Source: Nemertoderma westbladi (lineage: Eukaryota; Animalia; Xenacoelomorpha). From it: a DNA stretch of 64,000 nt. The stretch covers positions 8,932-72,931 of the forward strand of contig JAUCBJ010004773.1 in assembly GCA_032718475.1 (NCBI GenBank). Reading direction: 5' to 3'. Numbering within the stretch: the stretch's first letter is position 1; each line of letters begins with the position of its first letter. Shown here one piece after another: positions 20,619 through 61,653 of the stretch. A program made the translations under genes and the position numbers. A model generated the notes under the pieces. It was not told the DNA's origin and did not search any database. It was given only the letters and a program-made list of their open reading frames with translations.

Positions 20619-20885
20619 GGTGATTATTACTGTATTACAGTATTACCTGTATACAGATATATAGACCTAGGCCGGTAGGCCTACACTGATCAGCTGATAG
20701 GGATCCTACGCCTACCGCTACAATAATTCCAGCCAGAATTAGTACTGTAACTGTAGTACAAGTACAGTAGTACCGGTACTAAATGTACTACTGTACTGCT
20801 GTAGTACAGTAGTAACAGTAACAGAGTAGTAAGTTCTGAAGTTATCGAATTTCGGCAGTACAGCAGTACCGGTAGGTACTGGCAA

Positions 20886-31817: not shown

Positions 31818-34800
31818 ACTACTGTACTACACCTACGCCACACCCCATCCTGGCCCTAACGTACTACTACTGTACTACACCTCCGCCACACTCCATCCTG
31901 GCCCTAACGTACTACTACTGTACTACACCTCCGCCACACCCCATCCTGGCCCCAACGTACTACTACTGTACTACACCTCCGCCACACCCCATCCTGGCCC
32001 TAACGTACTACTACTGTACTACACCTCCGCCACACTCCATCCTGGCCCTAACGTACTACTACTGTACTACACCTCCGCCACACTCCATCCTGGCCCTAAC
32101 GTACTACTACTGTACTACACCTACGCCACACCCCATCCTGGCCCTAACGTACTACTACTGTACTACACCTCCGCCACACCCCATCCTGGCCCTAACGTAC
32201 TACTACTGTACTACACCTCCGCCACACTCCATCCTGGCCCTAACGTACTACTACTACTGTACTACACCTCCGCCACACTCCATCCTGGCCCTAACGTACT
32301 ACTACTGTACTACACCTCCGCCACACTCCATCCTGGCCCTAACGTACTACTACTGTACTACACCTCCGCCACACCCCATCCTGGCCCTAACGTACTACTA
32401 CTGTACTACACCTACGCCACACCCCATCCTGGCCCTAACGTACTACTACTGTACTACACCTCCGCCACACCCCATCCTGGCCCTAACGTACTACTACTGT
32501 ACTACACCTCCGCCACACTCCATCCTGGCCCTAACGTACTACTACTACTGTACTACACCTCCGCCACACTCCATCCTGGCCCTAACGTACTACTACTGTA
32601 CTACACCTCCGCCACACTCCATCCTGGCCCTAACGTACTACTACTGTACTACACCTCCGCCACACTCCATCCTGACCCTAACGTACTACTTCTACTGTAC
32701 TACACCTCCGCCACACTCCATCCTGGCCCTAACGTACTACTACTACTGTACTACACCTCCGCCACACTCCATCCTGGCCCTAACGTACTACTACTACTGT
32801 ACTACACCTCCGCCACACTCCATCCTGGCCCTAACGTACTACTACTGTACTACACCTCCGCCACACTCCATCCTGGCCCTAACGTACTACTACTGTACTA
32901 CACCTCCGCCACACTCCATCCTGGCCCTAACGTACTAACTACTGTACTACACCTCCGCCACACCCCATCCTGGCCCTAACGTACTAACTACTGTACTACA
33001 CCTCCGCCACACCCCATCCTGGCCCTAACGTACTACTACTGTACTACACCTCCGCCACACTCCATCCTGGCCCTAACGTACTACTACTGTACTACACCTC
33101 CGCCACACTCCATCCTGGCCCTAACGTACTACTACTACTGTACTACTGTACTGAACCAATGAAAAATGTTCGAAATTTGGGTGCCTATTTTGACTCAACA
33201 ATGTCAATGGAAACTTTCGTTAGTCGAACATCTAGTGGTGTATCATATCACTTAAGAAATCTTCGGAAAATACGGCCATATCTTACACAATCGGCAGCAG
33301 AAAAGCTAGTTCATTCCTTGATATCAAGTCGTTTGGATTATTGTAATTCACTTTACTATGGCATCGCTGAATATCAATTAGATCGATTACAACGATTGCA
33401 GAATATGGCTGCCCGTCTCGTGACCCGTATACAAAAGTATGATCATATCACACCGATTCTAAAACGGCTTCACTGGTTGCCTGTAAGACAACGCATTGAG
33501 TTTAAAATACTGTTGCTAGTATACAAGTCTGTTAATGGTCAATCCCCAGATTATATCCAAGAATTAACCACCATATACACGAATCCATATAACAGCCGTT
33601 CTGGAAATACTGTGACGCTGGAAATTCCTACGTATAAACACAGAACGCTCGGTGAGCGCGCCTTCGCAGTATCGGGACCTACATTGTGGAATAAATTACC
33701 AACTAAAATACGTGCCGCAACATCTATTGAAATATTTAAGAAGAACCTCAAAACTCATTTATTCGATAAAGCGTTTCCAACCCCATCTTAATTAACTTAC
33801 TTTTAATTAAATACGTTATTTCTACCGAAGTATCTTAATTTCTTAATTCGCCTTGCTACGTTTTAGTACTTTCAATTAACTTCATTATTTTTACTTCGAA
33901 CTGCCTTGCTTCCACATAATGATGTAAATAGATATTACTTATTTTTTACCGAACTATTTTAATTTGCCTTCCTTGTTTTAAGTATTTTAATTATTATGAT
34001 TAATTAATTGTGAACTACTTCTTGTAATGTCATTGTTAACTCGAAAGTTGCAGCGCTTAGAGTATAATTTTAAATTTAAGTTTTTAGCGCTAAATAAATA
34101 TAATTTGATTGAATTTGATTGACTACACCTCCGCCACACTCCATCCTGGCCCTAACGTACTACTACTGTACTACACCTCCGCCACACTCCATCCTGGCCC
34201 TAACGTACTACTACTGTACTACACCTCCGCCACACTCCATCCTGGCCCTAACGTACTACTACTGTACTACACCTCCGCCACACTCCATCCTGGCCCTAAC
34301 GTACTACTACTGTACTACACCTCCGCCACACTCCATCCTGGCCCTAACGGACTACTACTGTACTACACCTCCGCCACACTCCATCCTGGCCCTAACGTAC
34401 TACTACTGTACTACACCTCCGCCACACCCCATCCTGGCCCTAACGTACTACTACTGTACTGCACCTCCGCCACACCCCATCCTGGCCCTAACGTACTACT
34501 ACTGTACTACACCTCCGCTACACTCCATCCTGGCCCTAACGTACTACTACTGTACTACACCTCCGCCACACTCCATCCTGGCCCTAACGTACTACTACTG
34601 TACTACACCTCCGCCACACTCCATCCTGGCCCTAACGTACTACTACTGTACTACACCTCCGCCACACCCCATCCTGGCCCTAACGTACTACTACTACTGT
34701 ACTACACCTCCGCCACACTCCATCCTGGCCCTAACGTACTACTACTGTACTACACCTCCGCCACACTCCATCCTGGCCCTAACGTACTACTACTGTACTA

Positions 34801-35720
34801 CACCTCCGCCACACTCCATCCTGACCCTAACGTACTACTTCTACTGTACTACACCTCCGCCACACTCCATCCTGGCCCTAACGTACTACTACTACTGTAC
34901 TACACCTCCGTCACATTCCATCCTGGCCCTAACGTACTACTACTGTACTACACCTCCGCCACACTCCATCCTGACCCTAACGTACTACTTCTACTGTACT
35001 ACACCTCCGCCACACTCCATCCTGGCCCTAACGTACTACTACTACTGTACTACACCTCCGTCACATTCCATCCTGGCCCTAACGTACTACTACTGTACTA
35101 CACCTCCGCCACACTCCATCCTGACCCTAACGTACTACTTCTACTGTACTACACCTCCGCCACACTCCATCCTGGCCCTAACGTACTACTACTACTGTAC
35201 TACACCTCCGTCACATTCCATCCTGGCCCTAACGTACTACTACTGTACTACACCTCCGCCACACTCCATCCTGACCCTAACGTACTACTTCTACTGTACT
35301 ACACCTCCGCCACACTCCATCCTGGCCCTAACGTACTACTACTACTGTACTACACCTCCGTCACATTCCATCCTGGCCCTAACGTACTACTACTGTACTA
35401 CACCTCCGCCGCACCCCATCCTGGCCCTAACGTACTACTACTGTACTACACCTCCGCCACACTCCATCCTGGCCCTAACGTACTACTACTGTACTACACC
35501 TCCGCCACACTCCATCCTGGCCCTAACGTACTACTACTGTACTACACCTCCGCCACACCCCATCCTGGCCCTAACGTACTGCTACTACTGTACTACACCT
35601 CCGCCACACCCCATCCTGGCCCTGACGTACTACTACTGTACTACACCTCCGCCACACCCCATCCTGGCCCTAACGTACTACTACTGTACTACACCTCCGC
35701 CACACCCCATCCTGGCCCTA
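31818..35720. repeat. 48/51-bp minisatellite interrupted by a LINE fragment; 150-bp higher-order repeat at about 34780-35400
   Basis: Unit tactactactgtactacacctccgccacactccatcctggccctaacg; variant ctgaccctaa recurs at 34821, 34971, 35121 and 35271. Confidence 0.95.
33153..34122 (+). mobile_element. 3' fragment of an L2/CR1-group LINE
   Basis: RNLGAYFD, SRLDYCNSL, LQRLQNMAARLV, HITPILKRLHWLPV..RIEFK; 3' end cagcgcttagag...agcgctaaataaat followed by a (ttga) tail. Confidence 0.88.
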
Positions 35721-37068: not shown

Positions 37069-37276
37069 TGCTGGGCTCTAACTGCTGAGGATACCAAATC
37101 TTTGCATGGCACATTCGCAAGAATGCTACGCCGGGTTCACTGTGTCAAGTACAATGTACACATCTCTAACCAGACACTATAAAACATTGGAGGTGTCTCA
37201 TTGGTTCCCCCAAGCTTGACACTAGACAAAGCCGCCTCCGCTTTGCATGACATTGCTTTCGTCATGAGGACCAGCA
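37069..37276 (+). mobile_element. Third, more diverged fragment of the same RTE family
   Basis: tgctgggctctaactgctgagga...ttggttcccccaagcttgacactaga matches 12001-12207 with substitutions. Confidence 0.85.
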
Positions 37277-38500
37277 ACTACTCGTCCGGACAAGATGTTG
37301 TAGCAACAACTCGTCCGGACGAGTTCTTGCTACAACATCTCGTCCGGACGAGTTGTTGCTACAACATTTCGTCCGGACGAGTTGTTGCTACAACAACTCG
37401 TCCGGACGAGATGTACAATGGTATGTAAATATATGTTTATACTGTATGGTAATTTATGAGTGGAGGCCTATTGTAGGTTGTCATCTTAATACCAGATTAG
37501 TGTTGTGTTTAAGGCCATGGTACCACTACCGGTACTACTATGCTGGTAGGGCTAACAAGTTTCTACAGTAGGCCTACTCCAATAAAATACCCTTACCCTA
37601 CCTACAGTATAAAATGTTTGCATAAAACATCTCGTCTGAACAAGTTATTGCTATAACATCTTGTCCGGACGAGTTGTTGTTACAACATCTCGTCCGGACG
37701 AATTGTTGTTACAACATCTCGTCCGGACGAGTTGTTGCTAAAACATCTCGTCCAGACGAGTTGTTCACATACAACATCTCGTCCGGACGAGTTGTTGCTA
37801 AAACATCTCGTCCAGACGAGTTGTTCACATACAACATCTCGTCCGGACGAGTTGTTGCTACAACATCTCGTCCGGACGAGTTGTTGCTACAACAACTCGT
37901 CCGGACGAGATGTACAATGGTATGTAAATATATGTTTATACTGTATGGTAATTTATGAGTGGAGGCCTATTGTAGGTTGTCATCTTAATACCAGATTAGT
38001 GTTGTGTTTAAGGCCATGGTACCACTACCGGTACTACTATGCTGGTAGGGCTAACAAGTTTCTACAGTAGGCCTACTCCAATAAAATACCCTTACCCTAC
38101 CTACAGTATAAAATGTTTGTATAAAACATCTCGTCTGAACGAGTTATTGCTATAACATCTTGTCCGGACGAGTTGTTGTTACAACATCTCGTCCGGACGA
38201 GTTGTTGTTACAACATCTCGTCCGGACGAATTGTTGTTACAACATCTCGTCCGGACGAGTTGTTGCTAAAACATCTCGTCCAGACGAGTTGTTCACATAC
38301 AACATCTCGTCCGGACGAGTTGTTGCTAAAACATCTCGTCCAGACGAGTTGTTCACATACAACATCTCGTCCGGACGAGTTGTTGCTAAAACATCTCGTC
38401 CAGACGAGTTGTTCACATACAACATCTCGTGCGGACGAGTTGTTCACATACAACATCTCGTCCGGACGAGTTGTTCATATACAACATCTCGTCCGGACAT
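37275..38500. repeat. Array of ~29-bp palindromic units (core ctcgtccggacgag) with a 499-bp internal duplication
   Basis: Unit acaacatctcgtccggacgagttgttgct; the spacer starting gagatgtacaatgg occurs at 37408 and 37907. Confidence 0.9.
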
Positions 38501-41883: not shown

Positions 41884-42187
41884 GTTGGTTGACGTATATT
41901 TGTTTGTTATTATAAGAGCAAAAGTTATATATCGTATAATACGGATGTTTTGGTATACCGGTAGTAAATTAATGTTACAATTATTATCATAAATAAATGC
42001 GGCTTTTAGGTGAGAAATAGTTTGTGGAGCGGACGCCATTTAACGTATCCTAGTTAATCAAAGATTACCAAATATAAGGCTTAATTGATTATCTTATTAT
42101 TACAATTGATTTATAATTGATGTATATATATACCCTACTAAAATAACTATTTATGGCCACGGAAATAAAATAGTACTTTATATCCCG

Positions 42188-44388
42188 TGTAAAGTCCTCT
42201 ACGGTGGGGGCTATCCTACGGCCTACAAGTCTACTAATATGAAGCTATAGAATATCTCTAACCGTGGAGTCCAGTAGTATACCGCTTACCAGATCCTAGT
42301 AACGATGTATCTTACTATGAGACTCTAGTAATGAAACGGGCTCGTACAGTATCTGACAACAAATCCCAGTCCAGGATATCTAAACAAACAGATACAATAC
42401 ACAAACTACTACTGGCGAGGAGCAGAGCCTGATGTCTATTCTATGTACGTGAGCGGGTCTAATGCCTACGTACTAGACAAAAGGATACCTGTCCTCTAAC
42501 CGGTATGGCAGATGTACAGTTACAGTAACAGACCAAACTCACGGGAAAACAATCCCCGCGCAGCGAATCCTAACTATCACTGACAGTCCTAAATACAGTA
42601 ACTTGCCGCGGTGTGATTTATATGGTTTATATACGAGCTAAGTGGGTTACAGACCTAGCGTTACAATACTGATCTCCCTGTCTGAATCAGTCTAAAAAAG
42701 GTCGTGCCTAATGTAACAATACTGCTGAGCCGAAAACAACAGTTTAATAACGAAAATGAAATACTCCCTTTGCCGTAACTAAATATCAGATCCTAATTTA
42801 CAAATACAGATAAATTCTGCCTAAAGTAATATAAAGTGCGCTATAACTAGTAGAACTCTAAGGGTAAATATGTTTTAGGGCGTGTGTGTGTGGGTGTGTT
42901 ACAATAAAACAATTTTGGTGTATATATTTTCACTAGGTTTTAGTAATTTTCTGACCGAAACGATACCGTGCGCTAGCTACTAAAATAAACTAGTCGCGTT
43001 TTGTAGAACTTTATACTTACAAATGACGTCAAAGCTCTCTCCTTCTTATCCACAACTCAAATGGGCAACCACGGTGTTAGTAACTACACCCGTGATCGGC
43101 ACAAATACCAGATTCTGGTTGTAAGATAAGAAATAGGGGTTAATCGCTACCGTACGTTAGCTGATCTGGTATACAAATTTGATTCTAGAACTTTGTTGCC
43201 GCGGTAGTTAGCAGCAAATACCTATCAGTACGTGGCAAGGCGCGGTAGGATATTAATAAAACCTCCCTAGGCCAAGCGGTGTGCCGGTAGCAGAAATACT
43301 CCTTGCCTGATCAAATAACTAACTTCAGGCAGGGGGGGGGGGGGGGGGGGGGGGGTACTAATGTATGTTCTACAAAGCGAACCGGTACCAAACAGTCAGT
43401 GCTAACAAATCACTAAATTATGGAACGTATGCTGTCCGTACCTAATATGTACTTGCGCACTGACGAACGGCAATAGTTCGCACCCGTAAGACATACAGGT
43501 AACCCAGGGATTTGCAGGACTGACAAAGGGATTCTGTCTAAATATAATTATTTGATCCTAAATTTTGCGGCGTCCAGGACGGCGTCACGCTTACCCTGAT
43601 CTATAGGTCTTACGGCGGGCAAGGGCGTCGAACAAAGTCTTACCTTCATCGGAAGTCGGGCGCTGCATGGCAAGTTGAGTATTTCGTTGGGCGAAGGGGG
43701 TGCGCGGTCAAATCTAATGTGGGCGCTAGCGTGTTGTGGACATCTTTCCCTTGCGTTGCTGACGGCCTAACGGTCTAGGCTGCCATCTTCCCGATGTTTG
43801 GCTGTCCCAAAGTTGGACCAAAAGAAAACATGTTCAGGAGTTTGCAGTGTATTTACAGTTTAGCAAAGATTTATCAAACAGAATTACAAATAGTTTCAAC
43901 AAGAAACCAACAAAGTATAACGAAATGATTAGTGCATCTAGAGTAGTGAGTTTGAGACAAGTGAAGTAAGTGATAACCGAAGGCAAACCAGCCCTTTATA
44001 TACTAAATCTGGGACATAGAATTCACTAGAACCTTCGAGAGTATTCGATGGCCTCACATTGGAGCAATAAGATATTCCATGCCTTATGATTGGCCTAACT
44101 CATCGTTCGATACTTTGTACGCACCTCATTGGCTTACCAATTTGTACCAAATGAAAATAAATGGCCCCAAAATACAAATTTCCCGACCAAGATTCGAACT
44201 CGTAACCTATGTAATGCAACCAACGCCTTAACCATCTGACCACTACGCCACGAGAGTAACTAGGGGTTTTTATGTATACAAATATGAATAGGCATATTAC
44301 ATTACTGTAACTTAATCAAAGTGCGTCGGATTTTCGAAAGTTTTTACGTTATACTACAAATGCTATTCTATAGTGAAATAATTCATCA
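42188..44388 (-). repeat. 3' LTR (2201 bp)
   Basis: Direct repeat of 59428-61653. Confidence 0.95.
44180..44254 (-). ncRNA. tRNA-derived (SINE-head-like) Pol III A/B-box cassette in the 3' LTR
   Basis: Minus strand GGCGTAGTGGTCAGATGGTTAAGGCGTTGG...CGAGTTCGAATCTTG; no proper acceptor or anticodon stem. Confidence 0.55.
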
Positions 44389-45080
44389 CCGCTCCATGAA
44401 AACAGTAAGTAAGACTGTTTTCACCAATCGAAATACAAAACTATTTACAAACTACTTCTAAATCTACTGGTGGGGCCTAAAATATAAAATAATCACTATC
44501 TAATTATTGCATACTTAATATTGCAGGTACAGCGTAAATACAATCCATCATACATACAAAATACAAATTTACCAATTAACTTTAGTGCCTAAAATACAAA
44601 AAAGGCTTTCGGTTATCAAGATAAACAAATTAAACAAATCAGAACAAAATAAATCAAAACGAATCGAACAAATAATTGCAACTCTTTCAATAAATCTTTA
44701 TATATTGTAAATATACATAATAAACTTCCACCAAATTAAATCAGTCCAAATATAAAATAAACATAAGGCGCTAAAATCTTTCAAATAAGTCTTAAAGTGT
44801 CCTCCTGACGATCTAAATAGTTCGTCCTGCTGGTCTGGATGTCTTCTCCTGAGCACTAATTGCTAACGGTAGGCTCGCAAGCCTTCCTTCTCTATCTCGC
44901 TCCTCCAAAACCAACATTCAATATAGATACCCAAATATAATATCCAAACATAAAATATCCAATGTAAATATCCAAATATAAAATATCCAATATAAAAATC
45001 CAATATAACATCCAAATAAAATATCTGAATATAAATATCCAAATCGGTAGGCTCGCAAGCCTTCCTTTCTTCTCGCTTTC

Positions 45081-48000
45081 CTAATCCTTGGCTGATCGGG
45101 CTCGTCCACGTCCTCTAATGCGACTGGGTGGTGGTCGAGATCGAACTGGACTCGGACTTCGGTGTCGAGTTGTAGGTGGTTCCAAAATGCTAGGAAAGGG
45201 GACGACGGGAGTCTCGCACATCCGTCGTGCGCTCAGTCCTCTAAATCCTCGTCCGATTCCAACTGTCGGCTTAACGTCGGATCGAGTTTCTACAACGCTG
45301 GGAGGAAGTTGAAAGGGTAGGACCGTTCCGTCCGTTGACACCTTGCTCTCTGACGTCGTTTGAATCCTAATGGGTTCCGGCAAAGCCTATCCTGTCCCTC
45401 CGCGTGGTTCTCTAGCGAGGGAAACTGTGCCCCGAGTCATCCGGATTTGCGACTTCGATGTCGTCCTCTCGGCGACATTTACTACTTTCTTTATCTCTTG
45501 TCCGGCCTTTTGGGCTCTGAGTATACGAAGTTGCGGATCATCCTGTGGGTGACGTGTCTTTTCAGCTAACGGCGTGGCCTTGAAGCCAGTCTCACGCAAA
45601 ACGTCGGTCTCGTCTAGAATGCACGAGGTTACGCGTTTGTGATAAAATGCGCTCCTGTATGCCCAAGCTATCGAATGCCAAGCTCCTCGATTCCGCTGTT
45701 CAACTCGCAATTTGTCGAATTCTCCGGCGGTAATCTTGTTCACCACAGTTTGAAAGTTCCAAGTATTCTTGTTGTCGGGGTGTACCTGTAGAAAGTAGTC
45801 CCGCACAACTTTAAATCCGCTATCCAGTGGCAATATATCCAGCACCTCCAGAAGTTTGTCGTACTGAGGCATAGCCGAAACGTATCCTTCCTTCGACATT
45901 ATGAGAGGGTTTACGGCCCAAAATCCCAAGTGGGCTCTCATAGGAAAACGGTGTCGCTGCGTTGATACATGCTCGTCTGCTAGATTCTCCCAATGGTCGA
46001 ATAGCTGTCGAACGATTTTAACTGACATATGCTCATAGGGAACATCCCTAAGTTGACATTCGGACGCCCTATGGCCTTTAATATTGCAATATGTGCACTG
46101 CGCCACAAAACGCCAGCAAGTGTAGAAAGTGTGCGAACGCTGATCCCCACACCAGTTGCATACCAAGTCCGGTAGAGATATGTGTTTCGCTCCGCATTTC
46201 TTTGCGTGGTGGCCAGTTGCCCCGCATCTGCCACAAATAGTGTTGACAGGGTACCAAACTCGCTCATAGATAAGATCTCCGATGGGGCGAGCGCTACCGT
46301 CCATGTGATAATTCTCATCATCTGGGTCAGTCGGTATGTTCGTCTCCGTGGGTTGTACACAAACCATGGCATTGCTTTTCTCCAACTCGCGTATCTCAGT
46401 TCGCGTCTTCCTCGGAAGATTCTCCTCTATTTCTATGAGTTGCCGCAACGGTTCGTCTATTAGCGCCAACTCGGTCGGATCCACATCGTCGTGATGGGCG
46501 GTAGGCTCGCGAGCCTTCCAGGATCCTTCCGGGCGTTCGAATTCCGCGTGGTGTTCCCCGTCGTAGGGTACTAACGTTAACATCGACGGTCTGTCGACTA
46601 GGCTTCCCGCGTGAGTGAGATAGACGTCCCTGAAAACGCTAAGTCCCGCTCGCGTGAAAACTTCGCAGTGCGCATCGGTGTTATAAAAGGGTTGGAGAAA
46701 TTGTCGGAATACATCCGTATGCGTCCTTCCTCCGTCGTAAAATGTATGTCCTTCACCGAGACATAACGGATGTCGCTTCAGAGTCCTAGACACAACATCG
46801 GCGATGAAGCAGACGTTGACCGAAGATTCTATCGCCAAGTAATATTGTAAGATTATTCGCGGAGGTGAAGTAATCGCCCAGTACTCGCAACCTTGCCACT
46901 TTAGCTGTGACTCGAACTCGTTTACATCGGGAGTGTCTCCCTCTCCATATACGTCCGTGTATTTGCTCCTCTTACTCTCCTTATAATCCCAACTGAACAT
47001 TAGATATGAGATATAACCCGTCCCAGTTTTTCGCGTGTTATACTCCCTAAAGTATCCTTGCTCGATAGCCCAAAGCAACAATGGTCTAGTATCCACGTAT
47101 GGTGTAGGCAATCGGTCCTCTTCTGTGGGCATCCCTGCAAAGTCGCTAATAAGGTCATCCCATACACCGGATCCGATCTTGACGATGCTTTTGTCTAACA
47201 CAATGTCTCGCACGGCCTTTGGCAACATCCTAGCTTCTATGCTACAAGCCAGGTCCATGGATTTAACTATCCGTTTTATCATCGCGTGTCTTGCGTCGTT
47301 CCTTCTGGCATAGGCATCTTTCTATCGCTTCTTTGTCGGCTGAAAACATGTAACACGCCATCTGGTGCTCTAATCTGTATAGTCTTCGAAGTGAGGCTTT
47401 GCTGGTGGCTTCCTCCTTCATTATCGTAAAACATGTAACCATTCTCCTTCAGAGATCGGCTAGTCACGTCCCAATCGTCGAGTAAATCGTCGGTAGGGTT
47501 CCAAATTCTCCCAATCGACTTTTCATCATCGAAACTAATAGGTTTTCCGGTCCAATTGGTCGCGATGTCGGTATCGGTCTCGAATGTTCCGACTCCGATC
47601 CATAATCGAATCGTTCTCGTCAGATATCCTCGCAAGATACAAGGTGCGATATCCGTCCCCGCGCGATCCACTTCCTTAAAATTCGTAATATGTGGAGGCA
47701 CATTGCGTACGATTTTCTGAACTATTGTTCTACGCAACTCGGCTGACTCTAACACATCACCATAGGTAACCGATGGGAGGAAATCCAGGTTCGAAATGAT
47801 CTCCGGGTGTTCAACTATAGGGATCTCGTAAGTTGTCTCCTTCCGGGTCGGTATACTAATAGGAAAACTAGTTGGTCTCGCAATCGGTACTATCGTTCCA
47901 GCAAAATGGGGTTGAGGTTCTCGCGTCATCTCGACATGAGGTATCTGTAGTCTCTGCGACAAATGCTGAGCAAAGGTGATACTATCGAAGAGCTCGGGTG

Positions 48001-48808
48001 TCATCTCCTTAGGTTCAGTTTGATCGTGGGATATCCAATAGAATGGTAGGCTCGCGAGCCTTCCGCCGAACTCCTCGATCTCGCCTTTCTCGTACGCCTT
48101 GTACACCCTGTAGAGGCTCAAAGCTTCCCGTTTCTCTTGCGTCGACTTATTAGATTTGTCCACTACCATGCTGTAGACATCTGGTTCGACTAATTTAGGT
48201 TCGTTAATAACGATCCCACCCGCGTTCGCTCCACTCATTTTAAACGAATGATACGGATTTGTCAAAGGGTATCCGCCTTCTTGGTAACGTAGACTTTGGT
48301 GGTATGAGCATCGCGCTAATATCGGCTCGGGGTTCTCCGAGTTCAACCGTATAGGAATCGCGTTGTCTTGCTCACGCATACACGCTCCACATTTATAAAA
48401 CAGTTTGTATATGGAGAACGCGTCCTTGGTCTCTGGATCCGCTCCTCGAGCGCGTCTATAAAGATGCATTCCTTCAAATTCGTCTCTGGCTGCAGGTAAG
48501 GGTTCATTTACCGTCAAGTATTGCAGCATATGATATAATCGGCGTATTTCGGTGTCTGGATCCTCGCAAATGTCGCTAGCATTGAACTCCGCGCGTAATT
48601 CCTCCGTTCTTTTGTTATATGCGTCCAATCGTTGTCGCGTAACATTCGGGTCCGCCTTGGATTTAGCGAGCTTGGCTGTACTCCTAGCCATACTCTCCAC
48701 TCCAAACACACTAAAGTTTTTAGCTCCATAACGATTAAATGGCGCCTGATGCTCTTGTTCCTGCGTAAACCCTTGACGTAACTCTTTATAAATCTTCTCC
48801 GCCATCAT
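45081..48808 (-). CDS. Accessory ORF in the env position (about 1240 codons; one frameshift near 47320 and one in-frame TAG at 45387-45389): DEDDy-type 3'-5' exonuclease-like domain, three zinc knuckles, Arg/Ser/Pro-rich tail
   Basis: FYDNEG..TIQI, LPKAVRDIVLDKSIVKIGSGVWDDL, YVDTR, W...LQYYLAIES; CGRCGATGHHAKKC, CNWCGDQRSHTFYTC, CTYCNIKGHRASEC; no signal peptide or TM segment. Confidence 0.7.
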
Positions 48809-49540
48809 ATACGCGTATATATGGTTACATATCGTTACGTTTCTACTAGATGAAACACAAAATAGAGGTTAGATGTGAGGTGACTTAGAGTTTGTCGGCT
48901 TTTGGCTCAACTTTGCTCTAAACCCCAACCCATTTGCCTAATGACTTCGGGTTCGCGTGATTTCGCACTGGCTCCTAATCCAAAAAAATGTGCCGATAAA
49001 AAACGAATTCCGGGTAAACTAGCCGCGAGTCTAAAATACTCACCTTTTAATTTCCCAAACTACATTCCCAAAAGAAAATAATGCAGGCGAGAATTAATTC
49101 GGTCTAAATAATAGTAGACACGACTACGTAGAACAAGGCCGGTTTTCTTTTCCAAAAAAATTTTTCGGTAGGCTCGCAAGCCTTCCATCCGCTCTTGTCA
49201 TCCCCAATTTTAATTTTTATCTAGTTGTATTCTAGAATTCGCATTCACTGGAGAATCATTTTTCTTAAATTTAAATCCAACTAAATGGATTTGTCTAATA
49301 ATTTTTGAAAAATTGTCTCACTTGTGGGTTCCAAGTGGAATTCCATTCCTACTGTACACACAATCCCGCTCCTATGTGATACATAAGGGTACTACCCTCC
49401 ATGTTCACATATAAAGACAATGGAATTCCACCGCTGTCTCTATCTACAGTGAAGAGGATTACAAATGCACATACAGTAATACAAATACTAATTTACTAAA
49501 ATACGGTAGGTCTATGTGGCGGCCAACCAAGGTCCCACAT

Positions 49541-52500
49541 CTATTTACTAATATTGGGTGGAGATTTGTAGTCTCCTGTCTCGTTTCTAGTCTCCTCAAG
49601 GAGCACGAGACGTTGTACAGGTCTGTCTACGGTACGACCGTCGATAGTCCTTACAGTAACTGTCCTCACTACACCAGATGTAGGGTGCGTGGTCAAAATG
49701 ACTCCAGTCAGCCAAAACCGTCTTTTCAGATTGGCTTCAGCCAATAAAACATGGTCACCACGTCTTAAACATCGGGTATTAAGATACCAAGAGGTTCTGG
49801 TCAAAATAGAGGGCAAATAATATTTCTGCCATATTTCCCAGAATTTATTTGCAAGCAATTGAGTGGTTTTCCAAGCCTCGTTGCCGTATCCGTCGCTATC
49901 AACGGGTACCGAAATGGGCAACAATGTCGTCGGCGCCTGCATAAGCAGGTGCGCTGGTGTCAAGGCAAACTGTGCATCGTTATTGTCTGGGATCAAAGCG
50001 ATCAGTCTAGTGTTCAAAATCGCTTCAATTTCTATTAACAACGTCGTCAGTTGGTCGTCTGTCAGTATGTGTTGCGTCGGTACGACTTTAGCCATAGCTG
50101 TTTTAATTGAACCAATCAGTCTTTCCCAAACGCCGCCTCTCCACGGACTGTCTGGAGTATTGAAATACCAAACAATACGGTGAGGACGTAGTTCCTCAGA
50201 AATCTGGTTTTTGTCCAACTTTCTCAAAGCTCTGGTTATCTCGTTCCGTGCACCCACAAAGTTTGTCCCTTGGTCGCAGTAAATGGATTTGACCAATCCA
50301 CGTCTAGCGATAAATCGCCGTAAGGCTAGGATAAAGGCATTGGTGGTCAAATCTGTCACTCGCTCTATATGGACAGCTCTGCTGGCCATGCAAGTGAAGA
50401 TCAGTCCCCAACGTTTTACCTGTACCCTTCCGCGTTTCGCGATTATGGGTCCAAAACAGTCTATCCCTGTCTCAGTGAAAGGGGGTCTAAATGCCTGTAA
50501 TCTTGCTAGTGGTAGTTCACTCATTTCTTGGTGTCCTATCCTCGCGTGCACCTTCTTACAAATCATACAGTTCCGTGTTACCGAACTCAGTGCCTTACTA
50601 GGTCTAATCAGTACAAACCTGGAGCGTAAGTGTGATAGACAGTGGTGTCTACCCACATGTTTGAGTTGTACATGTGCGTCCAGTATCATAGCGCGCTGTA
50701 ATTCATGGTGTTGCGGTATGATGATAGGATACCTAAAGTCAAGTGCAAAGTCAATGTTTTGGAGTCTGGACTTGTGACAAAGTAAGCCCCGGTAAATAAT
50801 CGGACTCCAACTCAAAATCGGTGAAGACTTAATCTGTTTACCTTGGTTGATCGCTGTGAACTCTCGTGCGAAATATCGCAATTGATAATGTCTAATGATA
50901 TCAACTTCACAATGGCCAACTTCCTTTAAGGTAAGTCTTCTAGGAAAGTCGCATTTGCCTCTGGCATATTGTCTCAAACGTTTGAGCCATGCTAACTTGC
51001 GGCACGCGTCAGTCCATGATCTAGTTAGGTTCACTATCCTGTCAACGTAAGTGTTAGTGACGTCATCAGGTAAGGTATAGTCATAGTGTGGATACTTGTC
51101 TGGACTTGGTAGGCCCACGGGCCTTCCGGTAGGTTTGTCTGAGTCCCCAAGTACGTCAATCTCTACGGTCTTACCTTTACCGTCGCTCCTAATGTGTCGA
51201 CTGGCAGTAACGGTTTCAACTCTACAGTGTCAGTGTGTTCCTGTGAGCCTGTAAGCTTCCTAACCTTAGTCACACGTTTACCTGTAGGTGGTAAGTCAAG
51301 TACTTTCTTTGAGCGGAGTGTGATCGCTGTGGCCACACCTTTGTCGTCCAAAGAAGTCAAATTCGGTAAGTTTCTAAATGTCCGCTCCAATGGGTCTTCT
51401 AGTGGAGTGTCTAGTAGACAGTCTGGTGAAGCGTCCGGTGAACAGTCTGGTGAGACGTCTGGTGAGACATAGCGCGGAACTTCCAGCGAAATGTCCTGTC
51501 GTCGGTCCCAAGGTCTGTCTGGCATATCTTCTGTCAGAAAGTCTGGTCCAAAGTCTGGTGGACAGTCTGTCGAGATGTCTGGTGGAAAGTCTGGTGAGAC
51601 GTCCGGTAGACATTCTGTCGAGAGTTCCATCAAACAGTCTGGCGAACAATCCGGAGAACAATCTGGTGTCGCTTCTGGTGAATAATCTGGCGAGTAATCT
51701 GGTGAACAATCCGGCGAAACGTCTGGTGAAATCTCCCGCGGAACATCCGGTGAAGGATTCGTACAAGCGTCTGGTCGAGTGTCTGGTGAGACATCTGGCG
51801 TAATGTCAGGTCTGGCGTCTAGGTCATCAGATTTCGTCCGTCCTTGTTTCCTCTTGACCTTGGTGTTGGCTTTCGCTTTGGACTTGACAACCTTGTTGAT
51901 TTTTATCTCGGCACCCTCTGGTATGGTATTGGTTGTCGCGTCGAATAACGGTGGCCATTCGTCTGATGGTCGCTGTAGGAAATCGGGTCCTCTAAACCAA
52001 AAGGATTTATTGTCCGGTTTACAAAAGTCAAGCGGTTGCATCCCCCGTGACGCGATGTCAGCTGGGTTCAGCTTCCCTGGACAGTGACGCCAATCTTGTT
52101 TGAGCGACCGGTCTAATATTTCAGCCCGTCTGTTGGCTACGAGAGTCTTGAACTCAAACGCTTTGTTGTTTATGTACCAAAGTACCAACGTCGCATCCGT
52201 CCAATATGTGACCTTCAAGTTAGCCTCCAGCTCGCGTTGAACTAGACTGACAATATTGGTGGATATCGTCCCGGCTTGCAGCTCCCCACGAGGTACAGTC
52301 ATATACTTCAATGGCATTGTTCTAGCTCTTGAAGTAACGAGAGACACTTCGTAGCTGTCCGATGTCACTTGTCGTCTAAGGTACAAAGTAACCCCCAATC
52401 TATCCTTGCTAGCGTCACTAAAGCTGTGAAGCTCTAAATCGTCTGGAAAGGTGGTTTGCAAAGGAAAGTATACCCTCGGTATGGTATAGTCTTGTAGGAA

Positions 52501-55500
52501 CGTCAGTTGGGCTTCCCAGTCCCTCCATTGCTCAGCTAACTTTTCTGGGATGGGATCGTCCCATTCCAGTCCGGCTTGCCAAATGCTGCGGAGTATGATC
52601 CTAGCATGTAGGATCACTGGACTAATGAAACACAATGGGTCATACAATCGACTCATGGTCGATAAGCAAGTCCTCTTAGTGAGAGGTCTAGTCTGGTTGT
52701 TGGACCTTACACGTACCCTAAAATTGTCGGTGTTAGGGTCCCAACTAAGTCCTAATACTTTGGTCGTCGGCAGAGGTTCTAGGTCTAAGTCTAAGTCACC
52801 TCCACTGCGATCCGTCGGGTCAAATGAGTTCACCAGTTCGGGTTCGTTGGAAGCGAACTTCGTCAAGTGAAATCCGCCCTCAGCGAGACAATCCTGGAGT
52901 TGGTGTGCTACAGTTGTAGCGCGCTCCAAGGTGTCACAACTCTTGAGGCCGTCATCCACGTAGAAATCTCATTCCACTGTCCGAACTACTTCTGGGTCAA
53001 ATTGGTCTCGTCTGTCCAATGCGGTCTGCTTTAAGGCGTACATGGTGCAGTTGGGGCTGTCCCTGGCTCCAAATACTCTTACCTGCATTTGGTAAGTTTC
53101 TGGCGGAAGTTCTAAGTTTCCGTCCGGATACCAAAGAAACCTCAAGCTGTCCCTGTCCCGCTCCAAAGCCTTAACCTGGTGAAACATGGCCTCTACGTCA
53201 CAGGTGAAAGCCACTTTGCGTTGTCTAAAACGCATTAGGACTCCCATGAGGTAATTGTTCATATTCGGCCCGTCCATCAGTTCGCTGTTCATAGACATCC
53301 CTTGGTAAAGCGCAGCGCAGTTGTTGACTACACGCACCTTGCCAGGTTTGTCCGGGTGTCGCACAAAATGATGTGGCAGGTAATATGTCTGGTCTGTGGT
53401 TACCTCGGGATTTAACATCCTAATGGCGTATCCCTTTTGGAGATACGTCTGAAGTTGTGCATTGTATTGCATATGGGCCGTCTCGTCTCGCAACAATCGC
53501 TGCCTTATTGATTTGAGTCGCCTCAAAGCAAGCGGGTAATTGTTAACGAGTTTAGGTTGTCCATTGCGCCACCACATACCAACCTCATAGTGGCCATTCG
53601 CGGTCTGGCGAATGGTATCTCTCATAATATTTAATGACCGTTTTTCCTGTTCTGACATAGCGGTCTCGTAACTACCGGGTTCTGCTGAGTCCTGTTCCAA
53701 CCATTGAATGGTCCGTTCAGTCAGCAGTCGGTCAAGCGCTGCTTGCACTGCGCCATGGTCCTCGTCCACGTCTTCGTTCGCTGCGGTGGCTAGTGTCAAT
53801 GCATCTGGTAGGCTCGCAAGCCTTCCGGTGTCACTAGTCGGCGTCGAATTGTCGTGCGGCGGTTTGACAACTTCTTGATCTATCGATAGGCTTGCAAGCC
53901 TTCCAAGATCAATGACCGGTGTCGAAGCCTGGTGGGTGGGGTCAATGACCTTTGGATTTTTCGGTAGGCTCGCAAGCCTTCCAAAATCCTCGTTCATCGA
54001 GTCATCCACAGCAACAACCCTTTGGTCTTCGGTAGTCAATACAACCTGGTTTACTGCAAGTAGTTGTAAGTCAGAGGTCCGTGTGGTCGTGTCCAGATCA
54101 GTTACGTCAGTATCGGTGGCGTCTGCGTTAGCGACGCAAGTCTGTCGTAGTGCCGTCCGTACAATTGGACCACGGGAGTGTGAAGGAGAGTTATCTATCG
54201 TAGTAGTCAATAAACTACACGTACTCAAAACGTCGTCCTCCTGGTCACTTACCTCTAGTGAACGTATTGGTGCTCTAGTATACCAACCTATGGGAGTTCT
54301 ACATGCGTAGGGGTTGCCCGCTGTAATAACAGATGGGCGTGTCTCCCATACCTGATGTAGGTTAAACTGGTCTGTCCCAATTAACATCGCAATGGAACGA
54401 TAATTAACAGGACATTCCGGTATTCCAAGGTGTCGGAAATACTTACGATCTTCCGGTGATTGCTCTGGCACAGGGCCGAGCAAGTTACTAAAGTCCTTCG
54501 TAGCTGCAAAGGTCAAATTTCTTACCGGAAGTAATGAGCGCTCCTCCTTGCTGTGTTCCGCTTTGGAAAGAAGAGTGTCTAAGGTTAGTTTTACTCTTGT
54601 CACAGGGATCGCTCTCTTACCATGCATGCTGCTTACAGTATACTGAGCAGTCTTACCTTGACTCATGTCCGTAACCACGTCGGCTACTTGTTCGTCGACA
54701 TAACTGTGTGATGACGCAGAGTCTAAGATAGCGTATATATGCTTGCTCCCTCGGGTTCCGGTAATCTTTATAGGAATCAAGCTAAACCCGTTCAATTGGT
54801 TCTGTGTGAGGAGCGTTACCGATGGTTGTTCCTCACCTGCATGCACGTAGAAAGTGTCGTCTTCCTCCTCGTCCTCGTCCGATGATCCTGACTGATCCAT
54901 ACAGTCCGTGTAAAACGTACGGATCTCGCGCGGCGCACGCTCTTTATATAATGCGTCGCATCTAGCCGCTTTATCTGGATGCTCTCGTCGAAAGCGTTTG
55001 GTCGGAGTATGACTGGTGGTGTGGAGTAACGCGTCATGGTTACGTCTACACTGAGGACATGTATCGTCGCTAGGGCAATCCTTCCGGACGTGTCCTGGCT
55101 TCATACATCTCCAGCAGGAATCTAATGATCGAATTTGGAGTCTTCTCTCTTCGATTCCTAACTCTTTAAAAGCGCGACATCCACGAAGTTTATGTCTGCT
55201 GTAGTTTCTGCCGTTCCGCTCGAAGTATGAGCATCCCACAAAGTCCGCCGGCAACTGTTGTCGTGGCTGCGTGGTGCTGATAGGCGTCAGAACTTTAGAA
55301 GTCTCGGTAGGGGTGGCGTAGGTAACGGCTTTCGCGTTCGTCGGAGACGGTTTAGTCCGATTCGGCGCAGAAATAGCTATCCCTTCTGCCGCGATATGGT
55401 GATCGGTGTAATTCGATCGAGTCTCGATCACGGCCTCCCGCGAAATCAGTTGATAGACGTCGGTGAGTTTTAATAGCCCGCCGGCCTCTTCACGCTGGTA

Positions 55501-58391
55501 CTCGATGCGTCGCCATTCTTGTCGGAGTCGATGATGAAGTCGACCGATTATCCTGATGAGAACCGTCGGTGCATTAGCGTACTCGAGTTGTCCAATGGAC
55601 CGTAAAGTCCCTATAGCGTTCTTGATTTCGTCCGCGAGTCGTAGAAGATCAATCGGTTTCGAAATGCTGCCTCCTCTGCAGAGGTCTTCGATAATGGATT
55701 TAGCCATGGCGACGTTACCTCCGTAAATCGAATATAAACGGTCGTACGCCAACTCAAAGGCATCGGGAACACCAATGAAGGTTTCTGCTAATCGTTTCGG
55801 CTCACCAGACAGGACTTGGAGCAAGTAATTAAACTTCTCCGTCGAGGTGAAAGCACACTTAGCGATCTGGGACTCTACGTAGTCTACCAGTGTGCGCCAG
55901 TGTTTCGCGTTGCCAGAGAACTTCGGCGGTTGCTGTGCCGGTAATCCATGTCTAGCCGCGAATTTCGCAATCTCGCTAACCAAATCCAACTGTCCGCGTC
56001 CCTGTTCGGTGGCGTCGTCCAGTTGTTCCCTTCCACGTGTTGTTCGGCGGTAAGAATTATTAACGGGATCTTCTTCTCGATGTGTCGGAATCTGTCTAGT
56101 CTCCTGTTCTCGCCTTGGTAGTCGATGTTGTCTAGGTTGTTCTAACTCCACGCTGGTTCGTGATCGATCCGATGGTTGCGTTTCGAGTCGCTCTTCTATC
56201 TGAGCTAGTCAGTCCGTTACAGGTCGCATTATTTCGGCGAGTCTGTTGGTGCTGATCGCTTCCGCTGGTTGCAACGTGGGTTTCTGCAAAGGTGTTTCTC
56301 GTGGAGGATTATCGATGTAGGGGTTTGTCGATCGTTCTTCCCGTTTGTAATCCGCTGTCTCTGCCGCTCCAGTACGGAATATTTCCCGTTCCGTCGACTC
56401 CGAGTCACTGGATGAGTCGCTGTCATTCGGATAAGGTGGCTGGCGGTTTTGCGTCCGGCGTATTACTTTTGGTCTCGTTCGCTGAGGTCTAGAATCTACG
56501 GTTCTCCGTCGTTCGGTAGGCTTGCAAGCCTTCCATGAAGTCGTAGGTCTCGTTATACGTTGTTCGATCCTGTGGGTACTACCCACATCCATCCTCCTCC
56601 GTAGTTCGGTAGGCTCGCAAGCCTTCCACGAAGTCGTAGGTTGCGTCGAACATTGTGTCAAAGGTCGAGTGAAATAGTCGGGTTTCGTAGTCGGTCTATA
56701 AATAACTGGGTTCGCACAGCACATCACAGGTTTAACTTGTAATGGTTTACTCACCTGTTTAATTGTCATAAACGCAGGTTCCTCTCTTCCTACAAGTAGA
56801 CTACGACTTACTGTAGGTGGACTAGTTATGTTACCTGCTAAAATTGGCGATGAAGTCGCCCTAGGTTGTGGTATTTCCGTCACAACAAACCTGTTGCCTT
56901 GCGTGGAACGCACAGGCGTTATTTCCTTAGGTTTCGTAACAAAGACCGGTTTTATCGAAGTCGTGGGTTTGAGCATAGGAATAACTTGGGAAAACGTTTA
57001 CAGTAATCCTCGACGAACTCCTCTCCTCGATCTATCGCTCCCACACTTCCTTCTTCGATTCGCTTCTGAATTCCGCGATATCGAGCTTCCATGCGATCCA
57101 GGGCAGACAAGTCGTGTCCAGCTCGCGATCTTATAGATCTATCTCTCGCGTCGAGTTCAAGGTCCGCTTGCGCGTTCGCTGCCTCGCGCGATCTACGATT
57201 CAGCTCGAACTGTAGTCGCATCTCCCTTTCGCGTCGATCCGCTACTTGTTGTTGTGCCGCTAACTCCGCTTCCTGTATAGCTAAACGAGTGTTTATTTGT
57301 CGCGCCTCCAACTTGGCGCGAGCGTCGGATGCTGCTTTCTTCTGTGCTAATTCGTCGGCTGCCGCCGCCGTGGCTGCTTCTTGCGCTAAGTCTTCCTCCA
57401 GTCTCCTCATCTCTGAGGATTCTAATTCGGCTTGCGCCTTGAGTTGCGCAATTCTCGCCTCATCCTCTCTATGTTGTTTCTCTCCCTCAATGGCGATCTG
57501 TGCCATCCTCTGTTGCGCTTATTCCTCGACGACTTGTTGTCGGCGTGCAACCTCCTGCTGTTGTCGAGTAATTACAGACGCTGTTCTACTCACGTCGCCA
57601 ACGTCACTCCGTACACTAATGAACGATCTATCCAGTGGTGGAATTTGGTAGGCTCGCGAGCTTTCCGTAGTAAGAACTTCCGTCATCCCTCGCGGTTCGA
57701 CTTCCGGTTCTTCGATCGGTACGCCGCTTCTACGAAGAAAATTGGTGAGCGTCTCTAACCTCCCGTCCAGTCAGTAGAGTTCTTCTTCCTCTTCGGGTTG
57801 TAACAACGCGTCCGAAACTGACTCACCTAGCAGTTGGTCGAACTGCTCCTGTTGAGCCAATCTTATTACTGACTTAAACTGAATAAGGCTTTCTCTCGCA
57901 CTTACCAACTTGTCTATTATCTTTACCTGAGTAAAGTTGTCGCCACGCAACTCTGCAAGTTCGTGTAAACCTTTCAGTTTATCTAGGGAGGCATGTACCC
58001 TACTTTCTATCCTTAACTGTAAGGTGTAGAACTCGTATCTCGACATCGGGGCGGTTAACTCGCGTAAAACGCGAAAACCTTCTCCGAGGTTCCGAGTAAT
58101 CTGGGCCATGTGTCCTCCTATACTCCTAATAACGTTCTCCTGGCTTCCAGTCGAACTTACCATGTCCGGTTCCCGCGATCTGGTCTGCGGGATGGTAAGG
58201 AAATCTTCGATTATGCCGTCGCCACGCGTTGCGGCTTCCGGTATTTCCGTTCGGGGTACCGGCGACGCACATGGTGTGACATCGGTGGAATCTCGGGTTC
58301 TCCTTCTCGGTTCGTCTACTGTCGATCTGTCCGGGTCGCACGAGTCATAGTCGGTAGGTGGGTATCGAGTCGAATGGGGTGTGTCACGCAT
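49541..58391 (-). pseudogene. BEL/Pao gag-pol polyprotein (about 2950 codons) disrupted by four in-frame stops and two frameshifts
   Basis: Gag PPKFSG..EKFNYL, CWRCMKPGHVRKDC, CPQCRRNHDALLH; protease AILDSAS; RT YLPHH, DVEAMFHQV, FGARDSP, *DFYVDD; RNase H FSDAS, PRGELQA, NPADIASRG; integrase HHCC, GIDCFGP, DQGTNF, GGVWERL, LTPAHLL. Confidence 0.93.
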
Positions 58392-59427
58392 GTCTTATTA
58401 TATACGTCAAGTACGGGTAATAAAATGTCAAAGTATCTGAATGTTGAAATGTCAAACTTACCTTGGTATATATAGTATATATATACCCTAACCGGTACAA
58501 ATAAATCAACAAAGTCAGAATGTCGAAATGTCAAAATGTCGAAATGTCGAAATGTCCAAATGTCAAACTTACCTTGATATATATATATATCATATATATA
58601 CCCTAACTGGTACAAATAAATCTAACAAAGTATATAATAAAATAAGTAATAATCTAGCCTACCGGCTAAATTTGTACGAATAAATGAGATAACGGTATAC
58701 GTTACCAAAATGTAGATCAACAAGTACAAATAATAGGCAAAACAGCAACGTCTAACGGGAAAATAAGTACCAACAACACTACTAATAGACAGTGAAACCC
58801 ACAAATTTTGAGTACTACTGTGCTTTCTTAAGTTTGAACGACACGAGTCATAAAACTTACGTTCCTTTGATCTTCCAGTCGTGCAAATTCCCAAATACAA
58901 ACCGGATGTGGGTCATTCCGTTATTCGGCGGCGCGGACGAATTTATTGTCTCCCAAACATTGCGAAAAGCGGTCTAATCCTCGAAGCGGTCCAGAAATGA
59001 GTCCTTGAGTCCTGAAAAGTCGAAGGTGAGAGTTTTACTTCTACGCTACGAAAATTCTTCCTAGGTACCGATACAACTTGGTCTTTAAACCCTATGTACC
59101 TTTTCAAGTACCAAATTGTAACACCGCACACACACGGCATAAAACAAATGCTACAAACTAACTATTAGCTAGTCAAATATTAAATACGAAAGTACTAGCT
59201 ACCCTAAAAGCCTACTGAAGCAGGGGACGTTCTACAAATTACTAAATTTACTAACCTTAAATTTTAAATATCTCCTACTTTCAATAGCTAACAATATTTA
59301 TCTACCGTTTGCAAATCGCAACTTGCAAACTAAATAATAAATATACCTCACTGTAAAGTGCGCACGCACTTTACAGAGCGTACATATCTAAACAATACTA
59401 TACACTAATTTATATAGTATGTCTCAC

Positions 59428-61653
59428 TGTAAAGTCCTCTACGGTGGGGGCTATCGTACGGCCTACAAGTCTACTAATATGAAGCTATAGAATATCTCTA
59501 ACCGTGGAGTCCAGTAGTATACCGCTTACCAGATCCTAGTAACGATGTATCTTACTATGAGACTCTAGTAATGAAACGGGCTCGTACAGTATCTGACAAC
59601 AAATCCCAGTCCAGGATATCTAAACAAACAGATACAATACACAAACTACTACTGGCGAGGAGCAGAGCCTGATGTCTATTCTATGTACGTGAGCGGGTCT
59701 AATGCCTACGTACTAGACAAAAGGATACCTGTCCTCTAACCGGTATGGCAGATGTACAGTTACAGTAACAGACCAAACTCACGGGAAAACAATCCCCGCG
59801 CAGCGAATCCTAACTATCGCTGACAGTCCTAAATACCGTAACTTGCCGCGGTGTGATTTATAAGGTTTATATACGAGCTAGGTGGGTTACAGCCCTAGCG
59901 TTACAATACTGATCTCCCTGTCTGAATCAGTCTAAAAAAGGTCGTGCCTAATGTAACAATACTGCTGAGCAGAAAACAACAGTTTAATAACGAAAATGAA
60001 ATACTCCCTTTGCCGTAACTAAATATCAGATCCTAATTTACAAATACAGATAAATTCTGCCTAAAGTAATATAAAGTGCTCTATAACTAGTAGAACTCTA
60101 AGGGTAAATATGTTTTAGGGCGTGTGTGTGTGGGTGTGTTACAATAAAACAATTTTGGTGTATATATTTTCACTAGGTTTTAGTAATTTTCTGACCGAAA
60201 CGATACCGTGCGCTAGCTACTAAAATAAACTAGTCGCGTTTTGTAGAACTTTATACTTACAAATGACGTCAAAGCTCTCTCCTTCTTATCCACAACTCAA
60301 ATGGGCAACCACGGTGTTAGTAACTACACCCGTGATCGGCACAAATACCAGATTCTGGTTGTAAGATAAGAAATAGGGGTTAATCGCTACCGTACGTTAG
60401 CTGATCTGGTATACAAATTTGATTCTAGAACTTTGTTGCCGCGGTAGTTAGCAGCAAATACCTATCAGTACGTGGCAAGGCGCGGTAGTATATTAATAAA
60501 ACCTCCCTAGGCCAAGCGGTGTGCCGGTAGCAGAAATACTCCTTGCCTGATCAAATAACTAACTTCAGGCAGGGGGGTATGTTCTACAAAGCGAACCGGT
60601 ACCAAACAGTCAGTGCTAACAAATCACTAAATTATGGAACGTATGCTGTCCGTACCTAATATGTACTTGCGCACTGACGAACGGCAATAGTTTGCACCCG
60701 TAAGACATACAGGTAACCCAGGGATTTGCAGGACTGACAAAGGGATTCTGCCTAAATATAATTATTTGATCCTAAATTTTGCGGCGTCCAGGACGGCGTC
60801 ACGCTTACCCTGATCTATAGGTCTTACGGCGGGCAAGGGCGTCGAACAAAGTCTTACCTTCCTCGGAAGTCGGGCGCTGCATGGCAAGTTGAGTATTTCG
60901 TTGGGCGAAGGGGGTGCGCGGTCAAATCTAATGTGGGCGCTAGCGTGTTGTGGACATCTTTCCCCTGCGTTGCTGACGGCCTAACGGTCTAGGCTGCCAT
61001 CTTCCCGATGTTTGGCTGTCCCAAAGTTGGACCAAAAGAAAACATGTTCAGGAGTTTGCAGTGTATTTACAGTTTAGCAAAGATTTATCAAACAGAATTA
61101 CAAATAGTTTCAACAAGAAACCAACAAAGTATAACGAAATGATTAGTGCAAGAGTGTAAGTATTGTGGAAGTACAATTGTGATAACCGAAGGCAAACCAG
61201 CCCTTTATATACTAAATCTGGGACATAGAATTCACTAGAACCTTCGAGAGTATTCGATGGCCTCACATTGGAGCAATAAGATATTCCATGACTAGAACCT
61301 TCGAGAGTATTCGATGGCCTCACATTGGAGCAATAAGATATTCCATGCCTTATGATTGGCCTAACTCATCGTTCGATACGTTGTACGCACCTCATTGGCT
61401 TACCAATTTGTACCAAATGAAAATAAATGGCCCCAAAATACAAATTTCCCGACCAAGATTCGAACTCGTAACCTATGTAATGCAACCAACGCCTTAACCA
61501 TCTGACCACTACGCCACGAGAGTAACTAGGGGTTTTATGTATACAAATATGAATAGGCATATTACATTACTGTAACTTAATCAAAGTGCGTCGGATTTTC
61601 GAAAGTTTTTACGTTATACTACAAATGCTATTCTATAGTGAAATAATTCATCA
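59428..61653 (-). repeat. 5' LTR (2226 bp) with an internal 57-bp tandem duplication at 61234-61347
   Basis: Direct repeat of 42188-44388. Confidence 0.95.
61446..61520 (-). ncRNA. tRNA-derived Pol III A/B-box cassette in the 5' LTR
   Basis: Same sequence as 44180-44254. Confidence 0.55.

Follow-up and report, generated by a model that had tools for sequence, protein, structure and literature searches.

A 64,000-nucleotide stretch of the genome of Nemertoderma westbladi (Xenacoelomorpha; GenBank assembly GCA_032718475.1, contig JAUCBJ010004773.1, positions 8,932 to 72,931 of the forward strand; hereafter the window) contains a complete long terminal repeat (LTR) retrotransposon of the BEL/Pao group, whose third open reading frame (ORF3) occupies the slot of an envelope (env) gene. 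ORF3 is under purifying selection among copies of the element and is not an env gene. Its product is likely a WRN/EXD2-like 3'-5' exonuclease with three zinc knuckles, which would trim or hold the 3' ends of single-stranded RNAs, most probably host small silencing RNAs. As a whole, this reading is given a probability of roughly 0.4.

ORF3, a non-env gene behind pol

ORF3 (48808-45081, minus strand; ~1,240 residues, or about 1,241 when X is read at two breaks) lies between the integrase, which ends at 49541, and the 3' LTR (44388). In the window copy it consists of two pieces and a tail (Table 1). An orphan N-terminal region with a C-x2-C-x23-C-x2-H motif is followed by the nuclease-like domain, an acidic linker, three CCHC-type knuckles (the third matching Pfam zf-CCHC at E 0.0044, below cut-off), an orphan C-terminal region of ~220 residues and an end rich in Arg, Ser, Pro and Gly.

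The original prediction, made from the sequence alone, had described this ORF as a non-env gene for a WRN/EXD-like DEDDy exonuclease. The motifs that it quoted (FYDNEG, TIQI, the ExoII-like block, VDT and YLAIE, the last with Glu in place of the final Asp) were all recovered at their places on the minus strand, as were the N-terminal Cys-His motif, the knuckles and the RS/RG tail. The tail ORF is indeed in frame after one TAG; the frame shift between the two larger ORFs also exists, but near 47290 rather than 47320, some 30 nt away. The absence of a membrane segment was borne out, the best 19-residue Kyte-Doolittle mean in ORF3 being 1.48, on the ExoIII-like helix, and neither piece gave an env-type Pfam match. 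An envelope glycoprotein was ruled out on these two grounds.

A splice-acceptor-like site ~40 nt before the ATG suggests a spliced ORF3 message, so that ORF3 would be expressed from a subgenomic RNA, as env is. Upstream of gag, a duplicated unit (58422-58622) carries AG/GTAAGT donor-like sites at 58574 and 58463, which are candidate donors for this message.

Purifying selection among copies

Copies of the element were compared by aligning the contigs of sequencing runs to positions 44300-49600; parts of the window occur in five runs, from three studies of one organism. In four of the runs, 5,536, 3,697, 2,824 and 165 contigs were 80-100% alike to these positions, and the element family is multi-copy, in three studies. 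Expressed as read depth, which does not equal copy number, the site of the in-frame TAG carries another letter in 94-100% of the depth in all four runs, and the frame break shows a length difference in 96% and 77% of the depth in two runs and in 23-24% in the remaining two. It is this length difference, in contigs of other copies, that places the break near 47290. Both interruptions therefore appear to be private to that copy or to a minority of copies, although the pattern is less clean for the frame break.

Next to the break (47306-47345), each of the five listed variants is synonymous when read in the upstream frame and in no other, and in the tail behind the TAG four of six listed variants are synonymous. 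For ORF3 overall, the best 40 of 655 variant places were used; after five places outside ORF3 and the stop site were dropped, 21 of the 34 remaining differences were synonymous, versus 10.6 expected under the same mutation spectrum (p 2e-4). The signal was stronger in the nuclease-like core (46800-47450), where 34 of the best-supported 40 variants (from 46 variant places) were synonymous versus 12.5 expected (p 3e-12). The six replacements in this set leave D462, E464, D550, D551, D572, Y656 and E660 unchanged, including the acidic residues that the original prediction had singled out. Conservation is gauged here among close copies, over a short time only. ORF3 is a real gene under purifying selection among these copies.

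Contigs in three of four runs join position 45211 to 48273, skipping 3,061 nt of ORF3, and a deleted sub-family without the nuclease-like domain seems to exist.

A probable DEDDy-type exonuclease domain

Evidence for the domain comes from a custom ordered-motif test, in which seven blocks built from 40 fetched DEDDy proteins were run on ORF3. The ordered score was 45.6 bits, and the blocks fell on the motifs named above. This value was not reached in 5,000 shuffles of the whole length, in 3,000 local ones or with 3,000 column-permuted profiles; the best of 25 natural ORFs from the window scored 25.9 bits, and true family members that had been left out scored 39-125 bits, so that ORF3 falls within the range of the distant ones. 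HMMER with our own profiles of the family gave p ~0.001. The predicted order helix-strand-helix-strand-helix fits the family, a partly circular result. The nearest solved relatives of the profiled family are WRN, EXD2 and Mut-7, and by this test a WRN/EXD2-like DEDDy-type domain is quite probably present in ORF3.

Several results limit this assignment. The block boundaries were chosen after the motifs of the original prediction were known, the Y-x3-D of ExoIII is replaced by Y656-x3-E660, PF01612 of Pfam matched neither ORF3 piece, and searches of the protein libraries brought up no homologue. The reversed protein reaches 36 bits, and a single 22-residue block contributes 20 of the 45.6 bits. 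By Pfam, PDB and structure prediction, the last of which had been proposed as a check, the reading is neither confirmed nor excluded; for an RNase H-like fold, single-sequence folding gave a pLDDT (predicted local distance difference test) of 31, and a weak and partly circular model, forced with a family alignment, had EXD2 in all of its top 10 Foldseek rows (E 0.05-0.24). If the likeness were due to chance or convergence, and ORF3, though genuine and under selection, encoded an RNA-binding accessory protein of another or unknown fold, the missing library match, the lack of a confident model, the concentration of signal in one block and the score of the reversed protein would all be expected. 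We regard this as improbable, since seven blocks stand in the right order at believable distances, the score is equalled by none of 11,000 randomised controls, and both the range of left-out distant members and the secondary-structure order, circular as the latter partly is, accommodate ORF3. The likeness claimed in the original prediction thus exceeds chance, while the family identity lacks a library match; a DEDDy exonuclease is likely rather than proven, because the chain of motifs beats chance but no library search detects it.

The blocks contribute unequally. D462 and E464 stand in register with the ExoI D-x-E, in a block scoring only 0.6 bits, and the ExoII Asp of the K-x-G...D block corresponds to D551, at 20.3 bits (hhalign P 0.0007). 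An alternative ExoIII register, W-x3-E, was weaker, since its Glu is not common to other copies. Because the ExoIII Asp is Glu, the domain is DEDDy-like and not a canonical member, and for the same reason exonuclease activity is uncertain; we put the odds that it outlasts this change at about even. The same fold might be catalytically dead, or nearly so, and serve as an RNA-binding adaptor for RNA ends or host silencing factors. The Glu and the low ExoI and ExoIII block scores, which count against an active enzyme, are in keeping with such an adaptor, as is the description of EXD1 and Maelstrom as inactive DEDD derivatives that still bind RNA (PMC5408684). It is nevertheless unlikely: all four catalytic positions hold an acidic residue, the Tyr is in place, none is altered in 40 of the 46 variant places, and the element proteins of rotifers with an Asp-to-Glu variant (DEED) were judged possibly active in the same source.

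Comparison with known systems

The WRN/EXD2/Mut-7 subgroup of PF01612 (PDB 2fbt, 6k17, 7jw2) shares with ORF3 the ExoI D-x-E, a Q-containing strand, the LP...D..I.K.G....D block, a D-x-R strand and the Y-x3-acid helix. ORF3 differs from it in the final Glu, in two long insertions, in being borne by a retrotransposon and in being too divergent for Pfam and phmmer.

The statement in the original prediction that rotifer retroelements carry extra DEDDy ORFs proved correct. Such ORF3s, with a DEED motif and functionally untested, are described from the bdelloid Juno, Vesta and Athena/Terminon elements (PMC5408684, PMC6431247, PMC6338049). As in the present element, they are non-env third genes after pol, of DEDDy type and with an Asp-to-Glu change (PMC5408684). 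However, the elements that carry them are of Ty3/gypsy type or Penelope-like, their LTRs measuring 159-551 bp, as opposed to a BEL/Pao element with 2.2-kb LTRs. The motif is DEED in the rotifer proteins and D-E-D-E here, a comparison of published descriptions rather than of sequences, and, unlike in the rotifer proteins as described, the domain makes up one sixth of a 1,240-residue protein with three knuckles. The concept of a DEDDy ORF3 is therefore already known from rotifers, and the BEL/Pao host is the main new point.

Within BEL/Pao (Belpaoviridae), third genes are reported for Roo, Tas, Cer7 and mosquito elements with chuvirus glycoproteins, all of which share the gag-pol layout with an ORF after the integrase (PMC3118150, PMC554778, PMC13524379). 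In those elements, as described there, the extra gene encodes an envelope glycoprotein, in contrast to the nuclease-like product here, which has no membrane segment. The literature searched contained no exonuclease ORF in a BEL/Pao element, although subscription papers, Repbase, GyDB or supplements may hold one; the word 'exonuclease' is absent from the main text of PMC3118150 and PMC13524379.

The closest parallel in architecture is RNase D of Trypanosoma brucei (TbRND; PDB 7c45), in which a DEDDy exonuclease is likewise followed by tandem CCHC knuckles; guide RNA trimming is promoted by these knuckles, whose binding site on single-stranded RNA lies upstream of the 3' end (PMC7797062). TbRND, as described there, is a cellular mitochondrial protein of ~375 residues with four knuckles and a short linker, and is a functional analogue of ORF3 only.

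Proposed role of the ORF3 protein

Because the ORF3 gene is not joined to pol and its product is soluble and has an R/S/G-rich tail, the protein is best pictured as an RNA 3'-end trimmer or binder working outside the particle. The knuckles would grip RNA upstream of its 3' end and feed the active site, as in the trypanosome enzyme, and the tail may send the protein to RNA granules. Rodriguez et al. consider both Mut-7-like silencing roles and 3'-end processing for element-encoded DEDDy proteins (PMC5408684). Host small RNAs are here the most likely target, because, according to the same source, Mut-7, EXD1 and Maelstrom have roles in silencing and because the family is abundant; if PIWI-interacting RNAs (piRNAs) or small interfering RNAs were trimmed, the family would evade silencing.

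Proofreading or polishing of cDNA ends, for accurate copying of a 19.5-kb retrotransposon, is the least likely of the three functions offered in the original prediction, and in our estimate very improbable. In its favour stand the size of the element, about double the 4.2-10 kb usual for BEL/Pao (PMC3118150), the action of WRN and EXD2 on DNA, and a bacterial reverse transcriptase hybrid with proofreading activity, listed in PMC12439943. Yet the domain is not fused to the reverse transcriptase and is instead accompanied by knuckles of RNA type and an R/S/G tail, and the relevant part of PMC6431247 lists no exonuclease for Burro and Ogre, elements of still greater size.

Repeated RNA hairpins and a possible self-priming site

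Twelve copies of a 20-nt hairpin are dispersed through the element, all on the sense strand, eight in coding sequence (in two reading frames) and four in non-coding sequence. None occurs elsewhere in the window (expected by chance, 0.01 copies). Of the 84 stem pairs 83 are intact, and a single double change occurs, at 51108-51127; the hairpins are a candidate packaging or protein-docking signal. Because two of them sit inside ORF3, this gene is an established part of the element RNA.

Directly after the 5' LTR there is no TGG or tRNA-type primer site. Instead, the 11 nt at the primer-binding position are complementary to a segment inside the LTR, a match found in 0.25% of 2,000 shuffled LTRs, and self-priming at 59417-59427, on the pattern of Tf1 (PMC4600332), is possible. 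These features raise the prospect of an active exonuclease that works on the element's own nucleic acid, trimming the self-primer or the RNA 3' end while its knuckles dock on the twelve hairpins. The missing tRNA site, the internal match and the preserved hairpin structures would suit it, but in Tf1-type self-priming the RNase H of the element suffices, ORF3 stands apart from gag-pol and is not known to enter the particle by any route, and the Cys-His boxes of Gag could themselves read the hairpins. Own-RNA processing is thus doubtful as the principal role, even though 3'-end processing of element RNA is proposed by Rodriguez et al. (PMC5408684).

Just after the LTR (59320-59460, minus strand) stands an 11-bp hairpin that contains the LTR end a second time, and the LTR end itself folds with the geometry of the repeated hairpins (z -2.7; 2 of 200 shuffles fold equally well). 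A stretch of the LTR (61445-61520, and its 3' LTR copy) looks tRNA-like by eye, with A- and B-box-like words; neither ARAGORN nor Rfam made a call there.

The BEL/Pao element

By its LTRs, Pfam domains and motifs, the host element of ORF3 is a BEL/Pao retrotransposon of 19,466 bp (42188-61653, minus strand). The two LTRs are ~99% identical; besides a few indels, 17 mismatches occur over 2,169 aligned columns. The domain order Gag, protease, reverse transcriptase, RNase H and integrase, together with the group-specific Pfam domains, is that of BEL/Pao; DUF1759, PF05380 and DUF5641 match above cut-off, PF05380 being the RNase H of this group (PMC3985635). The protease carries LDSAS at 54726, the reverse transcriptase FYVDD at 52965 and the RNase H DAS (in PF05380). 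Cys-His boxes and integrase spacing are among the hallmarks listed in PMC554778: in the triple box of Gag, boxes 2 and 3 fit those patterns and box 1 is atypical, and the integrase triad (D257, D319, E369) is spaced close to D(62)D(49)E. With its 2.2-kb LTRs the element is unusually large, because BEL/Pao LTRs usually measure 0.2-1.2 kb and the size range given in PMC3118150 is smaller. Since its gag-pol is broken by four stops and two frame changes, the window copy is considered young but dead.

Between the RNase H and the integrase, a repeat with a 12-nt period (51383-51792) encodes PD(C/V)S units over ~140 residues.

Table 1. Features of the BEL/Pao element and of ORF3 in the window
Feature	Position	Strand	Description
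Target-site duplication	42183-42187 (left copy), 61654-61658 (right copy)		5 bp, flanks of element
5' LTR	59428-61653	minus	2,226 bp, TG...CA ends
Primer-binding-site position	59417-59427	minus	11 nt complementary (one G.U) to LTR 60710-60700
gag-pol, BEL/Pao type	49541-58391	minus	DUF1759, Cys-His boxes, protease, reverse transcriptase, RNase H, integrase with DUF5641
Splice-acceptor-like site	48846-48872	minus	CTAAC branch, pyrimidine tract, AG
ORF3 piece 1	47292-48808	minus	residues 1-505; orphan N-terminal region, then ExoI-like residues and next strands
N-terminal Cys-His motif	48391-48299	minus	C-x2-C-x23-C-x2-H
WRN/EXD2-like DEDDy-type domain (probable)	46827-47437	minus	residues ~458-661; split by the frame break
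ExoI-like motif	47431-47414	minus	FYDNEG; D462 (47425), E464 (47419)
Strand motif	47383-47372	minus	TIQI, after ExoI-like motif
ORF3 piece 2	45390-47288	minus	ExoII-like block, VDT, ExoIII-like motif, acidic linker, CCHC knuckles, C-terminal region
ExoII-like block	47225-47151	minus	LPKAV...GVWDDL; D551 (47156)
VDT	47096-47088	minus
ExoIII-like motif	46841-46827	minus	YLAIE; Y656 (46841), E660 (46829)
Three CCHC-type zinc knuckles	46056-46235	minus	residues 858-917; 46235-46194, 46160-46116, 46097-46056
ORF3 tail	45081-45386	minus	in frame after TAG 45389-45387; R/S/P/G-rich; stop 45083-45081
Twelve 20-nt hairpins	44868-57666	minus	2 bp, A-A mismatch, 5 bp, tetraloop; in ORF3 at 48045-48064 and 46500-46519
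3' LTR	42188-44388	minus	2,201 bp, TG...CA ends

Surroundings of the element

Host genes in the window form long single ORFs (19287-20642, 28197-29552 and 62427-63128), and the host looks intron-poor. They comprise a gene for E1 alpha of branched-chain keto-acid dehydrogenase (618 bits to PDB 1dtw), a member of the N6-adenineMlase family and part of a PIG-N gene. Repeats at 1-5900, 31816-35720 and 37273-38293 include an 81-bp satellite, 48-bp tandem arrays and a 29-bp-period family in both orientations. The regions 11747-12433, 21350-24930 and 12827-14562 hold non-LTR reverse transcriptase pieces (RVT_1, DUF6451) with a 687-nt inverted duplicate, as well as a remnant of C2H2 plus ZSWIM-RNaseH-like transposase type.

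Significance

It is a largely open question how animal retrotransposons withstand piRNA silencing, and few suppressors encoded by the elements themselves have been identified. ORF3 belongs to a young and abundant BEL/Pao family. If the proposed nuclease is genuine, such cargo would extend from rotifer Ty3/gypsy-type and Penelope-like elements to a third group of retroelements, which would suggest repeated independent capture, and the protein could be assayed directly on small RNAs. A more far-reaching picture, which we hold to be unlikely, is that of a giant self-priming BEL/Pao lineage with a TbRND-like trimmer of its own, acquired independently of the rotifer elements; its active D-E-D-E site would be guided by the knuckles to destroy piRNAs or to mature the element's own primer, with the twelve hairpins as docking sites. 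Were this so, ORF3 would be a retrotransposon-encoded nuclease suppressor of small-RNA silencing in an animal. Even with a dead enzyme, a 1,240-residue orphan protein under strong selection would mean that functions not yet recognised reside in the env slot of BEL/Pao elements.
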